Notes: generated from the sequence alone by a model not told the origin. A DNA stretch of 37,080 bases from Bdellovibrionales bacterium (GCA_044233365.1 JBIIKE010000001.1:1-37080), one strand, 5' to 3'; counted from the first letter of the stretch, positions 3,925-19,035 are shown. A program made the numbers and translations.

Positions 3925-4067
3925 ACGTCCGATTGAACACTTTTTGTGCACAAGTGGATAAAAATGGGGATAAGTATGTTTTTTTGAAATAGTCAAAGTG
4001 TGGGCGGTGGTCATGCATGTGCATTTCCACCACCCGTCCGAAATCACCATCTGCGACGAAGTCGTCG

Positions 4068-5336
4068 TCACATCACGATGAGCTCTTCTCTCTCGGCACC
4101 CACGGAGATGAACTGAATCCGCACGCCCACGAGCTGCGCGAGGCGGCGCAGGTAGAGCCGGGCGGGCTTCGGCAGGTCGTCCCAGGTGCGGACCTCGCGG
4201 GTGGACTCCTGCCACCCCGGCCAGGTCTCGTAGATCGGCTCGCACTCGGCGTAGATCGCCGAGTCCGGCACGTAGGTGAGCACCTTGTCCTTCCACCGGT
4301 AGCCGGTACAGACCTTGATCTCTTCGAAGCCGTCGAGCACGTCGAGCTTGGTGATCGCGAGCCCGGTGAAGCCGTTCAGCCACGCGGCGTAGCGGAGGGC
4401 CACCGCGTCGAACCAGCCGCAGCGGCGGCGGCGGCCGGTGGTGGCGCCGTACTCACGGCCGACCGACACCAGCCGCTCGCCGAGCTCGTCGTGCAGCTCC
4501 ACCGGAAACGGGCCGGCGCCCACCGCGGTAGCATACGCCTTGACCACGCCGAGCACGTTCTTGATCGCCTGCGGCGGCAGGCCCGCGCCTGCCGAGGCCG
4601 CGCCCGCGATCGGGTTTGACGAGGTGACGTACGGGTACGTGCCCCAGTCGATGTCGCGCATCACGCCGAGCTGGCCTTCGAGCAGTACGTTGTGGTCCTG
4701 CGCCACCGCGTACTGGACCATCGACATCGTGTCGATGATCCGATGGCCGAGGCGCGAGCGCCAGTGCTCCGCCTTACCGAGCAGGTCGTCGAGCGCGAGT
4801 GGCTCGCCGCCAAGCTCCTCAATCTCCCGGTTCTTTCGGGGCAGCACGTTCGCGAGCCGGTCGCGGAACCAGTCCGGGTGGAGCAGGTCGCCGAGCCGGA
4901 GCCCCCAGCGCGCGGCCTTGTCGGCGTAGGTGGGGCCGATGCCGCGCTTGGTCGTGCCGATCACGTCCTTGCTCGACCGGCTGGACTCCTGCAGGCCGTC
5001 GATCAGCGGGTGATAGGGCATCACGATGTGCGCCCGTTCGCTGAGGAACAGGTTCGAGGTGGGCACGCTCGCCGCCTCGATCTGCTCCAGCTCCGCGAGC
5101 AGGTTGTCCGGGTTCACCACGCAGCCGGCGCCGACGATGCACTTCGCGACGGGGTTGAACACCCCCGACGGCACCATGTGCAGCGCAAAGCGTCCGTGCT
5201 CGTTCATCACGGTGTGACCGGCGTTGTCGCCGCCCTGGTACCGGATGGTCATGTCCGCGTGCTGGGCGAGGTAGTCGACGATCCGACCCTTGCCCTCGTC
5301 GCCGTACTGCGCACCGACCACTGCGGTGACTGGCAT
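4068..5336 (-). CDS. purA: Adenylosuccinate synthetase (PurA family), very GC-rich, compositionally foreign
   Basis: [23 protein letters not shown]...[11 protein letters not shown]...[14 protein letters not shown]...[14 protein letters not shown]...TKLDVL are canonical PurA motifs, alignable along the full length with E. coli and B. subtilis PurA from memory. I set the start at the ATG at 5334-5336 because AGGAGG lies 4 nt upstream; the track's 5372 start is less likely. Sampled lines are 72-82% GC, with G/C in nearly every third codon position. Confidence 0.9.
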
Positions 5337-5363
5337 GTCGCCTCCTATGGTCTCACGACCAAA

Positions 5364-5385
5364 ATGATCCACTTGCGTGGATCAT
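5364..5385. promoter_or_regulatory. 22-bp palindrome (operator-like) upstream of purA
   Basis: ATGATCCAC ttgc GTGGATCAT: perfect 9-bp arms, located 28-49 nt upstream of the purA start. Confidence 0.3.
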
Positions 5386-5519
5386 GGTGTTGATGTTTCA
5401 AAGCAGCTTGATCGCCCCTCCAAAACAATCAATGCCGCCATCTTAAACCAATTTTATTTTTTCGCAAGCTACTTGCTCCAGCTGTCGTTCATTGGTAGGA
5501 TAATTTGGCCTTCATTTAT

Positions 5520-5601
5520 GCCGTGGTGGCGGAATTGGTAGACGCGCTGGCTTCAGGTGTCAGTGACTTCGGTCGTGAGAGTTCGAGTCTCTCCCACGGT
5601 A
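5520..5601 (+). tRNA. tRNA-Leu (anticodon CAG), long variable arm, no encoded CCA
   Basis: Manual cloverleaf: acceptor GCCGTGG/CCACGGT (G1-U72), D arm GCGGAATTGGTAGACGC, anticodon stem CTGGC/GTCAG with loop TTCAGGT, variable arm TGACTTCGGTCGT, T arm GAGAG-TTCGAGT-CTCTC, discriminator A. Confidence 0.9.
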
Positions 5602-5612
5602 CACGATACATT

Positions 5613-7193
5613 TTATACTTTCTCGCTTGTGTTCCAGAGCGCTGTGAAATACTGCGCCATTGCATCGCGCATATCTTTACGTCGTACATCAATCGCAACT
5701 GCTTTTTCTTCAACATCCCAATAAATAAACCGTACAGCTTTTGGGTAGATATTTATTTGCATTGGTGACGTGAACTCTTTTTGCATCACACGAAGCTCAG
5801 TGAGTTTCATATCAGAATCACCTGCTTCAATAATTTCATCGACCACTGCTTGCATGCTTCCAGACAGCGTTAACAACCGAGCCTGAACACCATACTGCAA
5901 TCGCTTTTTATGATAGTTCACAAACCATGGATTCAAAATCCGGGCTGACTCTGCTTCTCCATAATTTGCGCCAATCACCATATACTCCTCTCCTGGCTTC
6001 ATTTCATACATCCAACGTAAAAATAACTCTTGCACCGACGACAATCCTGTGACAGTGACCAAATCTTGGTTCCACAAATACTGAAAATAGTGTTTATAAT
6101 TTTCCGCGACCGCTTCATCTTCAATGACAAATGCATACTGCGCTTGCCAGTGAATGTGCGCAACATAATTTCCAAAAATAAACACGACCATTGGAGAGCT
6201 GACATCAGGTGGTAATTCTTTATATTCCACAAATAGTTCATGATTCTTCACACCCATCTCACCAACATTTAAACCATCCAGTCGCTTACCGCTGTCGACC
6301 AAATCGTGCCACCAAATTTTTTTCTCAATTCGACGTTGGTTATAGTCTCGCCAATAATCTGGCATCACATCACCAATACCAGCATTGCCACCAATAAACC
6401 AGTGTTCTGGATACTCTAACGAGAGTTCCATCACTTGCTTGAGTCCATCGAGTCCGCGATAGGTTGCGACATCCTGATTCCACAAGGTTTCAAAATATTC
6501 ACGAAACGATGTTGCCAGCTGCTCACTCTGAATGGAAATCACAAACGGTTGCTTGTCTTGTAACATGAACGCAACATTGTTTTGCCAAATATCGATCATG
6601 GTTGGCTCTTGCACGCCGTACGGCAACAAACGGGTTTTGGTGAAGGCCTCAGTCCCAACAACATCGGCATACGCGGCGTCTTGTTGCGAAAACAATAAGC
6701 GTGCCGGGAGCTCCCACGCAACACGTTGCTGGTCATAGGTCTTGAATATCTGCTCATATAATTCTTTTTGTGAACGCGTGCCGGCAATCACCAAATGCTC
6801 TTCTTTTGAATCTTTGACGTCGGCAAGCAGCGCGTTGCGATGCGCTTTCAATCCACTCATACCTTCATAGAGTTTCACTTCATGGTCTGACCGACTGCGT
6901 AAGACATTAATTTCATCGGCAATGGTTTGAGCGGATTGCAATCGACTAGACGCTTCTTCGACGAGTGAGCTGGCGTCGGACAATTGAAACAGCGACACGC
7001 CACCTTGCGAGGTTTTAAAAACTAACAAGCGCTTTTCGAGCGCATCTAAAGCTTCATAGACAATATTACGATGCAGTCCAGTTTTTTTGATTATTGCCGC
7101 TGCCTTAGATTGACCCAATTCCATCAATGCGATGTAGACAGACGCCTGATTTGGCGAAAATCCGAGCTGTACAAGTTTTTCTGATAAGTCCAT
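5613..7193 (-). CDS. TrmB-family HTH transcriptional regulator with an internally triplicated C-terminal module
   Basis: The N-terminus MDLSEKLVQLGFSPNQASVYIALMELGQSKAAAIIKKTGLHRNIVYEALDALEKRLLV is a typical TrmB winged helix. Three ~135-aa modules follow, ending YFETLWNQ, YFQYLWNQ and YFTALWNT. Confidence 0.7.
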   Translation of the reverse strand: MDLSEKLVQLGFSPNQASVYIALMELGQSKAAAIIKKTGLHRNIVYEALDALEKRLLVFKTSQGGVSLFQLSDASSLVEEASSRLQSAQTIADEINVLRSRSDHEVKLYEGMSGLKAHRNALLADVKDSKEEHLVIAGTRSQKELYEQIFKTYDQQRVAWELPARLLFSQQDAAYADVVGTEAFTKTRLLPYGVQEPTMIDIWQNNVAFMLQDKQPFVISIQSEQLATSFREYFETLWNQDVATYRGLDGLKQVMELSLEYPEHWFIGGNAGIGDVMPDYWRDYNQRRIEKKIWWHDLVDSGKRLDGLNVGEMGVKNHELFVEYKELPPDVSSPMVVFIFGNYVAHIHWQAQYAFVIEDEAVAENYKHYFQYLWNQDLVTVTGLSSVQELFLRWMYEMKPGEEYMVIGANYGEAESARILNPWFVNYHKKRLQYGVQARLLTLSGSMQAVVDEIIEAGDSDMKLTELRVMQKEFTSPMQINIYPKAVRFIYWDVEEKAVAIDVRRKDMRDAMAQYFTALWNTSEKV

Positions 7194-18045: not shown

Positions 18046-18046
18046 A

Positions 18047-18310
18047 TTACGCTTTTTTTGCTTTCGCTGATTTTGCAACTTGCGCTTTTAAACGAGACGC
18101 TTTGTTTGGGTGAATGACATTACGCTTTGCTGCTTTGTCGAGCGCTTTTTGCGCTTTCACCACTAACGCTTCAACGTCTTTCGCACCTTCCTTTAAAGCG
18201 TGTTCCAAGTTCTTCATCGCTTCTTTGATTGCTTTACGCTTTACGTTATTGAGCGCTGTACGTTTTTTTGTTTGACGGATTGCTTTACGTGAATTGGCTT
18301 TATTTGCCAT
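18047..18310 (-). CDS. rpsT: 30S ribosomal protein S20
   Basis: MANKANSRKAIRQTKKRTALNNVKRKAIKEAMKNLEHAL...: typical S20 sequence, composition and length (87 aa). Confidence 0.9.
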   Translation of the reverse strand: MANKANSRKAIRQTKKRTALNNVKRKAIKEAMKNLEHALKEGAKDVEALVVKAQKALDKAAKRNVIHPNKASRLKAQVAKSAKAKKA

Positions 18311-18611
18311 AAGAATAAATAGGTAGAATGATAATAATTGTTTGGGACAATTTGTATATAGAATTTGAGAGCCTCAAAACACTACCAAACAATAATAGAA
18401 ATTGCAACTACCTTGACCAAGGTGCAATGCATAGTGAAAAACACTTGCGTCTGAGAATAAGCAGTGAGACTGGAATGTGCCGTGCGCTTGGAAGATCACC
18501 TCCCTGCTTTTTGAAAGCAACGAGGCGAACCGTCCACAACGCTGCCAGACACGCTACTATTCTCGGGCTTTTCTTTTATTCAAAGTATAAAACCTTGGTG
18601 ATGTGGTGCAG

Positions 18612-18655
18612 CATGTTTTCAAAACTCAGCACGCATGCTGTTCTTTGAAAACATG
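18612..18655. other. 44-nt near-perfect hairpin in non-coding DNA
   Basis: CATGTTTTCAAA (18612-18623) pairs with TTTGAAAACATG (18644-18655). An inner stem CAGCA/TGCTG has a 4-nt loop. No U-run follows on either strand. Confidence 0.5.
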
Positions 18656-18706
18656 GCCTGCCAGAACACGAAGAATCGTACCTAACAGACGTGACGACGC
18701 ACTCAC

Positions 18707-18979
18707 TCAGCCAATACCTCCCCTGTCTCGGACAATCTGTTGCCAAGACGGGCCGTGGAAGGCCGTACGAATCGCATGCACCCACTCAGACTCGCCGGGC
18801 CGTCGAGCCAACGAAGCATCCCTAGTCGCCCACTCCTGAGCGACGAGCTGAGGCCCCACCTCTGCGGGGCCATGCGATGCTGCGCACGCCTCTGCGATAC
18901 GAGCCCTAATCCGCAGCTCATCAATACTTGGCGCGGCAAACAAGTCTATTCTTTTTTGACCGTCAGAGTCATGTGACAA
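18707..18979 (-). CDS. Orphan 90-aa ORF in a GC-rich patch (coding status uncertain)
   Basis: GAGGAGGTG lies 11 nt upstream of the ATG (GGAGG ends 13 nt upstream). MSHDSDGQKRIDLFAAPSIDELRIRARIAEACAASHGPAEVGPQLVAQEWATRD.... Sampled lines in 18781-18900 are 65-68% GC. No family recognised. Confidence 0.35.
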   Translation of the reverse strand: MSHDSDGQKRIDLFAAPSIDELRIRARIAEACAASHGPAEVGPQLVAQEWATRDASLARRPGESEWVHAIRTAFHGPSWQQIVRDRGGIG

Positions 18980-19035
18980 AGTGCACCTCCTCTATGTCTA
19001 TAGAGACTAACAAACTACAAAAATATGTCTAGCCT

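Follow-up and report, generated by a model that had tools for sequence, protein, structure and literature searches.

The metagenomic contig JBIIKE010000001.1 (1–37080; assembly GCA_044233365.1), deposited as a Bdellovibrionales bacterium, is examined here at its whole length of 37,080 bp, which is referred to as the window. Its backbone of housekeeping genes has a GC content of 44.3% and is interrupted by four segments at 57–68% GC, which extend over approximately 4002–5347, 7410–8375, 13469–14230 and 18688–18990 and are numbered below as islands 1 to 4. The open reading frames (ORFs) of these islands are preceded by classical Shine–Dalgarno (SD) sites, which the native genes lack. We consider it likely that all four islands are real products of horizontal transfer, acquired at different times and residing in a low-GC, SD-less genome. 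The island ORFs are as follows, GC2 and GC3 denoting here and below the GC content at second and third codon positions:

4068–5336, minus strand: purA (island 1), adenylosuccinate synthetase of 422 amino acids (Pfam PF00709, E = 1e-167; GC 0.69, GC3 0.93).
7422–8084, plus strand: I2a (island 2), secreted protein of 220 amino acids with a signal peptide and about 12 predicted beta strands (GC 0.60, GC3 0.70; SD GGAGG at 7412–7416).
8095–8358, plus strand: I2b (island 2), orphan of 87 amino acids (GC 0.59; SD AAGGAG at 8084–8089, overlapping the I2a stop codon).
13545–14216, minus strand: island 3 gene, 223 amino acids, with a basic disordered N-terminus and an all-alpha domain (GC 0.56, GC3 0.62; SD GGAGG at 14221–14225).
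18707–18979, minus strand: island 4 ORF, orphan of 90 amino acids with a TTG start (GC 0.59; GGAGG at 18986–18990, 6 nt before the TTG; duplex energy -13.3 kcal/mol).

Maximum-likelihood three-segment fits place the GC-rich cores at 4002–5345 (68%), 7457–8350 (61%), 13469–14230 (57%) and 18688–18906 (65%). Across 26 backbone genes GC3 is 0.419 ± 0.035 with a maximum of 0.49, while the island genes show values of 0.93, 0.70, 0.69, 0.62 and 0.56, that is 4–15 standard deviations over the backbone, and in all four ORFs other than purA the value is intermediate. GC2 is also raised, being 0.50–0.56 in I2a and the island 4 ORF and 0.41–0.43 in I2b and the island 3 gene, compared with 0.37 in the backbone.

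The islands and the backbone differ equally clearly in their translation initiation signals. All of the island genes (5/5) carry GGAGG or AGGAG 5–7 nt ahead of the start codon, and the duplexes of these five leaders with ACCUCCUUA range from -7.9 to -13.3 kcal/mol. For 27 backbone genes the corresponding anti-SD duplexes range from +2.8 to -6.1 kcal/mol, and an SD site is present in 0–1 of the 27 (Fisher p = 5e-6, or 3e-5 if the site of the lamin-tail domain (LTD) gene is counted). The nearest exceptions are this LTD gene, which has only an AAGGA at -13, and rny, whose GAGG at -18 is too distant upstream. In a generous re-test, every possible start among the first 30 codons was admitted for backbone-type ORFs of >=120 amino acids, and the threshold was set at -7.5 kcal/mol. 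It was reached by 0/22 ORFs in the window and, among the related loci used for comparison, by 0/11 in L009 (CALKUP010000001.1, a 267,582-bp contig from a different species and sample), 0/5 in L008 (CAZBLE010000008.1) and 1/7 in L006, for a total of 1/45. It is therefore confirmed that the islands alone carry classical ribosome-binding sites and that native genes are without them. A first-pass annotation of the same DNA, made from the sequence alone, had described every island as SD-led and compositionally foreign and the backbone as nearly SD-less; both parts of that description are upheld by the duplex scoring and by the GC segments and codon-position values, and its counts of G and C proved exact for the lines at 6001 (25/60) and 7621 (42/60) and for 18781–18900 (68%).

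Initiation at native genes appears to be SD-independent, not simply leaderless, because rpmH (29531–29711) has a canonical sigma-70 promoter and a leader of ~20 nt without an SD. Leaderless mRNA was considered for the backbone and rejected: although TANNNT boxes lie close to many starts, they do so at irregular distances, and both rpmH and the TrmB-family gene have clear leaders. The backbone leaders are G-poor (13% G, 70% A+T) and weakly folded. Between -30 and +30, the folding energy of the island genes is -9.5 to -19.2 kcal/mol compared with -5.8 ± 2.7 kcal/mol for the backbone (p = 0.001).

The SD sites are also retained between species. GGAGG stands ahead of I2a in the window, L006 and L008, with GGGGGA in a further relative, L007, and ahead of the island 3 gene in both the window and L009, in each case set in otherwise differing surrounding sequence. 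Retention of the site while its surroundings diverged points to selection, and hence implies a usable anti-SD sequence; it suggests that the island SD sites may be used in translation.

The islands are genuine sequence and not assembly chimeras. Contigs from Logan (SRR27335598) match the window at 100% over 5530–12827 and at 99.95% over 12916–16874 and span islands 2 and 3. A 3211-bp contig from the Joint Genome Institute (JGI; sample 3300059473) runs from island 2 through the TrmB gene and the tRNA gene as far as 123 bp into the purA ORF, and a second assembly (GCA_041442895.1) has the island 4 ORF flanked by the identical two neighbours. Further, L009 is colinear with window positions 197–14867 and holds purA and an island 3 ortholog at the corresponding sites.

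The origin of purA can be traced in some detail. The best match, the contig L004, has a GC content of ~70% from end to end, with the C-terminus of purQ encoded on one flank of its purA and the N-terminus of purB on the other. These are 71% (purQ) and 80% (purB) identical to their counterparts in L010, a 102-kb scaffold at 71% GC with the gene order purQ-purA-purB-purC-purF-purD, and L004 has the same order. The identity between the window and L004 copies is 96.06% at the nucleotide level and extends exactly from the SD to the stop codon, the flanks on both sides being unrelated. In L004 the AGGAGGC, which is the same as in the window, overlaps the purQ stop codon. The closest named homolog comes from a Myxococcota metagenome-assembled genome, and in the purA tree the nearest neighbour of the window copy is L004, L009 joins next, and all three lie within a clade named as Myxococcota. 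The database comparison proposed in the first-pass annotation thus did recover a donor-type contig, Myxococcota-like, for purA. Because the 96% identity from SD to stop is with a copy in its native purQ-purA-purB operon, purA is regarded as a recent single-gene transfer. It is also the only island gene for which the nearest homolog lies in a distant lineage with a conflicting tree.

The two copies differ in 49 codons, 47 of them synonymously and 2 non-synonymously, which argues for strong purifying selection on purA (dN/dS about 0.01). With L009 as outgroup, 26 changes are specific to the window, with 18 from GC to AT against 1 from AT to GC; the L004 branch has 4 GC-to-AT and 0 AT-to-GC changes, most of its differences being G/C interchanges. 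The AT bias of the window changes fits a donor-to-window direction and true residence in an AT-biased genome, and the GC-to-AT decay of purA has already begun. Had donor DNA converted just the middle of the gene, a mosaic would be expected; the differences from L004 are evenly spread, with a mild excess in the last 170 nt, and a conversion tract could not be demonstrated.

The immediate surroundings of purA contain the following features:

3952–3975, no strand assigned: left junction of island 1, an invariant backbone 24-mer AAGTGGATAAAAATGGGGATAAGT with two DnaA-box-like 9-mers (alignment of the window, L006 and L009).
4002–4067, minus strand: GC-rich 3' tail of island 1, with hairpins CGACGA-N2-TCGTCG and GGGTGGTGG-N16-CCACCGCCC.
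5341–5346, minus strand: purA SD AGGAGG, 4 nt ahead of the ATG, where the GC-rich segment starts (duplex energy -10.2 kcal/mol).
5364–5385, minus strand: perfect 9-bp hairpin ATGATCCAC-GCAA-GTGGATCAT followed by TTTT, as read from the sequence.
5520–5602, plus strand: tRNA-Leu(CAG), backbone gene to the right of island 1 (95% identical in L006, which is without purA).

The window, L006 and L009 diverge fully just past the 24-mer, giving a sharp left junction. On the other side, the hairpin lies within a 41-nt segment that separates the shared backbone flank from the purA SD and that is not found in L009, which carries a differing 34-nt segment. The 3' tail is possibly a purA terminator placed ahead of the rRNA promoter; no similarity was detected between this tail and the purA-purB spacer of L004. 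The slot lacks purA in L006, where it holds an unrelated GC-rich piece of ~150 bp. In L009 purA occupies the same slot and is also cut just before the SD, yet it is only 82% identical to both the window and the L004 copies. GC3 of purA is 0.93 in the window and 0.88 in L009 and thus nearly un-ameliorated, though four-fold degenerate sites of the backbone are near saturation between the two. Two histories would account for this: purA entered the slot on two occasions from related donors, or fresh donor DNA displaced a copy already in residence. Around this slot, the tandem DnaA-box-like 9-mers of the 24-mer (reverse complements TTATCCCCA and TTATCCACT) lie 30–50 nt upstream of the 23S promoter and far from dnaA/dnaN, and the 24-mer is conserved in three related genomes. 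A scan of metagenome contigs with a 21-mer from the junction was abandoned as a survey of purA slots, as its 8 matches came from unrelated organisms with only the DnaA-box-like motif in common. The tRNA-Leu(CAG) gene, which directly adjoins the purA island, reads CUG, a codon favoured in GC-rich genes; it is kept in relatives with or without purA.

Islands 2 and 3 have a different history. Only three database relatives of I2a were found, at 55–59% identity. Where the context is recoverable, in L006 and L007, the gene stands divergently beside TrmB, and a fourth ortholog, interrupted by a run of N, was located beside TrmB in L008 by tblastn. Two of the orthologs have a GC content of 0.58–0.59 against 0.45–0.47 in their own backbones. 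The orthologs beside TrmB in three related genomes share 55–60% of amino acids with I2a; in the paired comparison I2a stands at 56–61% and TrmB at 60–68%, so that the divergence runs in parallel. An island 3 ortholog, 43% identical and also led by GGAGG, is located at the same site in L009, and the family has only two further representatives among 1.84 billion proteins. Four-fold degenerate sites, compared between the orthologs of islands 2 and 3, have an identity of 0.29–0.59, close to saturation. Since the orthologs diverged in step with their neighbours and their four-fold sites are near saturation, both islands must have been long resident in the lineage. The first-pass annotation had argued that the island segments did not evolve in this genome, which stands for purA with its 96% donor match and does not hold for islands 2 and 3 with their diverged syntenic orthologs. 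Its statement that the islands occupy intergenic slots amid conserved gene order is borne out by the comparison of related loci.

Presence at these syntenic sites is patchy. L006 is without purA, L008 is without the island 3 gene, I2b is present in the window only (tblastn against the related loci gave no match, nor was there a family match), and the island 2 slot of L009 holds another gene, a non-homologous GC-rich one of 217 amino acids with a signal peptide and a GGAG site. The slots that lack purA (L006, 1200–1340) or the island 3 gene (L008, 5600–5990; a GC-rich spacer of ~170 bp remains) still contain a GC-rich piece (150–170 bp) that includes an SD-like motif and a short ORF; such pieces may be remnants of other cargo. 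Database searches returned no homologs of islands 2–4 outside this clade. A rough two-state estimate from the four-fold divergence takes GC3 from ~0.95 to ~0.55–0.65, which is near the observed values. Raised GC2 beside an intermediate GC3 is also the classical picture of a gene from a very GC-rich source that has ameliorated in part. Islands 2 and 3 are probably older, partly ameliorated acquisitions from very GC-rich sources, and the same probably applies to island 4.

The proteins of I2a, I2b, island 3 and island 4 had no significant match in NCBIfam, PHROGs or PADLOC and could not be given a function. The structure model of I2a is of low confidence (predicted local distance difference test (pLDDT) score 49.6) and too weak for a fold search. 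Upstream of I2a, the divergent spacer shared with TrmB contains two palindromes, CCTTCTATA/TATAGAAGG at 7367–7384 and the following:

7392–7408, plus strand: palindrome GATTCC-N5-GGAATC directly before the island 2 SD, conserved in L006.

The latter is possibly an operator of the divergent TrmB-family regulator. The island 3 family (with the homologs P0163–P0165) conserves the pattern EHH(I/P)xP..R..GD..R...C..WH...WH..F.NA, which resembles a His-Me finger. A reading as an HNH-type nuclease or homing endonuclease was rejected, as there were no sequence matches in Pfam or PDB, and the all-alpha model (pLDDT 74.6) had no fold match in PDB or viral libraries. An imperfect 18-nt inverted pair that brackets island 3 (13536–13553 and 14239–14256) was also set aside; pairs of this kind often arise by chance, and its right arm falls within 5' sequence that is conserved in L009 as well. 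For island 4, the ATG proposed as the start in the first-pass annotation (18972–18970) is out of frame and opens 8 codons only, the true start being the TTG at 18979. The evidence that the island 4 ORF is coding is weak. The segment was also considered as a GC-rich structured RNA and rejected, the best Rfam matches being at chance level (E = 0.06–0.18) and the folding z-scores -1.3 and -1.8.

The recipient lineage can be approached through the rest of the contig, which carries 5S and 23S rRNA genes and four tRNA genes, a 16S gene not being adjacent. Two of its features are:

521–3436, minus strand: 23S rRNA.
3896–3924, minus strand: backbone promoter of the 23S-5S rRNA genes, TTGACA-17-TATAGT (11/12 positions match), with island 1 directly upstream.

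The 23S-5S genes are served by a strong promoter of their own, and since no 16S gene lies upstream, the rRNA genes are unlinked. The housekeeping genes encode a TrmB-family regulator, an APH-type kinase, a DUF1697 protein, the LTD/OB-fold protein, a class A penicillin-binding protein and a short YidC, together with polA, holA, rpsT, uvrB, tyrS, dciA, dnaN, dnaA, rpmH, rnpA, yidD, hup, rny and clpP. The short YidC of 265 amino acids, the joint presence of RNase Y and DciA, the absence of a linked 16S gene and the loss of helix IV/loop D from the 5S rRNA all hint at the Candidate Phyla Radiation (CPR), and the backbone organism is probably CPR/Patescibacteria-like, ultra-small and of low GC. The 5S rRNA (235–341) is 107 nt long, and its deletion of helix IV/loop D corresponds to the '5Gap1' trait described for most Parcubacteria (PMC9297842). 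The record of L008 is labelled 'uncultured Gammaproteobacteria'. Its polA, holA, rpsT, LTD, DUF1697 and TrmB proteins are 68–88% identical in amino acid sequence to those of the window (polA to TrmB), with rpsT at 99%; the label looks wrong, and the classifier may have been misled by foreign genes. The LTD/OB-fold protein itself (787 amino acids, 11102–13465) combines lamin-tail domains with an OB fold in an architecture that recalls secreted nucleases, and would suit a DNA-scavenging lifestyle.

From these observations, the following course of events can be proposed. purA would have been captured from a Myxococcota-like donor of 70% GC, excised near-exactly from SD to stop out of a purQ-purA-purB operon, and would now be held by strong purifying selection with its drift towards AT only just under way. 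The older arrivals would be islands 2 and 3 and probably island 4, in which first and second codon positions are still GC-rich and the third has come down to 0.56–0.70, and which were then inherited vertically in the clade with occasional loss. Each island gene would have retained the SD of its arrival: the GC-rich start regions fold more and probably need SD pairing, while native genes rely on open, G-poor leaders. Transcription of the islands would start from the adjacent AT-rich native spacers, where promoter-like sites lie. As the most economical route of entry we infer that DNA was taken up, joined to promoter-bearing spacers by illegitimate or homology-assisted recombination, and quickly stripped of flanks without a function. 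Saccharibacteria are documented to be naturally competent (PMC10633639). No Pfam domain of an integrase, transposase or recombinase was found in or beside any island, and searches for flanking or terminal direct repeats were likewise negative, in agreement with the first-pass annotation, which had noted no adjacent integrase, transposase or target-site duplication. A shared attC-like 3' element and intI were also not found, and the islands are dispersed, not arrayed.

Several points weigh against this interpretation. As islands 2–4 have no outside homolog, composition is what carries their foreign origin. The amelioration estimate is rough, and the GC3 of I2a (0.64–0.72) is somewhat above expectation for the most diverged pairs. 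The island 4 ORF may be a decaying remnant and not a gene. The CPR assignment is indirect, as it depends on the short YidC, RNase Y, DciA, the unlinked 16S and the 5S trait. Finally, the case for SD use comes from conservation and not from the 16S 3' end. Some Parcubacteria are without the anti-SD motif (PMC9297842), and if the lineage shares this loss, SD function is impossible.

Of the other explanations, a possible though doubtful one is that fixed intergenic slots are repeatedly refilled or refreshed from one GC-rich partner, perhaps a Myxococcota-like host, by uptake in which the incoming copy replaces the resident. It is kept open because purA sits in the same slot with the same 5' cut in two species, while the window copy is sister to that of the free-living-type donor (96%) and not to that of L009 (82%), because different species have non-homologous genes in the island 2 slot, GC-rich and SD-led in each case, and because the L006 and L008 slots hold short GC-rich remnants with SD-like motifs. 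It is rather unlikely that islands 2–4 are native, lineage-specific genes whose high GC did not come from a foreign donor and is kept at equilibrium by selection, or by GC-biased gene conversion at spots prone to recombination. Such an origin would agree with their occurrence in this clade only, with their synteny and divergence in step with neighbours, and with GC3 being alike in all orthologs (0.59–0.73) despite near-saturated synonymous sites. However, the GC2 of I2a and the island 4 ORF and the use of SD sites resemble a GC-rich genome, and gene conversion would not make SD sites. The spread of backbone GC3 is narrow (standard deviation 0.035), an effect of +0.2–0.3 is without known precedent, and the unrelated GGAG-led gene in the L009 slot fits a turnover of cargo. 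A recent joint arrival of all four islands, for example on one mobile element that was later fragmented, was implicit in the first-pass annotation and is very improbable. The islands do have their SD usage and GC excess in common and are clustered within 15 kb, but their GC3 spans a wide range (0.93 to 0.56), diverged orthologs exist in relatives for islands 2 and 3 while purA matches its donor at 96%, and no shared repeats, integrase or transposase were found; the islands differ in age and therefore do not stem from one delivery event. Least credible of all is a chimera or contamination in which high-GC reads were mis-joined into a low-GC contig: the DNA is metagenome-derived with sharp GC steps, the Logan contig L002 stops at 5530, within the tRNA beside island 1, and the exact purA protein (422 and 434 amino acids were tried) had no record in a contig look-up (a cluster look-up later listed a 422-amino-acid purA on this contig), but the junctions are reproduced by three assemblers and at least two samples (Logan, JGI, NCBI), purA occupies the corresponding site of a 267-kb contig from a different species, the junctions coincide with gene ends and nothing is left of purQ or purB, the purA substitutions in the window are AT-biased, and four separate mis-joins each giving an intact SD and ORF are implausible.

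Acquisition of the islands at different times, the reading preferred here, has parallels in several known systems. In the model of Lawrence and Ochman, horizontally acquired genes are said to undergo amelioration, and the islands resemble such cases in their atypical GC and codon-position pattern, their patchy distribution, the incongruent purA tree and the AT-directed drift. They differ in being single ORFs trimmed from SD to stop with no mobility genes. The islands are also comparable to integron cassettes and tRNA-associated islands, being compact, ORF-sized inserts that need outside promoters, one of which adjoins a tRNA gene; unlike these, they form no array and lack an attC-like element, IntI or any other integrase, and direct repeats at their flanks. 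Translation in Bacteroidota is SD-poor. As in that group and in those Parcubacteria that are without the anti-SD motif (PMC9297842), the native genes here are without SD and their leaders are G-poor and weakly folded, whereas the minority of foreign genes in the window retains strong, conserved SD sites. Horizontal transfer into Patescibacteria, with gene-pair divergence of 3.9–34.5%, is reported in the main text of PMC12455944, and the islands are similar to the transfers described there in being single genes or small islands from other phyla in ultra-small genomes. On the other hand, a Myxococcota-like donor is outside the donor phyla listed in that text, from which the word 'purine' is absent and in which SD was not searched for, and the CPR membership of the window is itself only a probable one. 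As to the route, the competence of Saccharibacteria (PMC10633639) makes uptake of DNA plausible.

The findings do not overturn current understanding. Horizontal transfer followed by amelioration is well known, including in Patescibacteria (PMC12455944), and the unusual part is that translation signals separate foreign from native genes. Because the recipient genes use another initiation signal, the SD constitutes a second, independent marker of foreign origin, and it could help to detect horizontal transfer in lineages that are poor in SD sites. The conserved SD sites further raise the question of whether a translation system that ignores SD can use it for GC-rich, structured foreign mRNAs. 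The recipient lineage, which is uncultured, is probably unable to make its own purines, and a purA donor so nearly identical suggests that a specific Myxococcota-like population is its ecological partner and possibly its host. If slots are indeed refreshed from such a partner, donor-type SD sites and codon usage would form a running record of gene flow from host to symbiont, and could identify the hosts of uncultured ultra-small bacteria.

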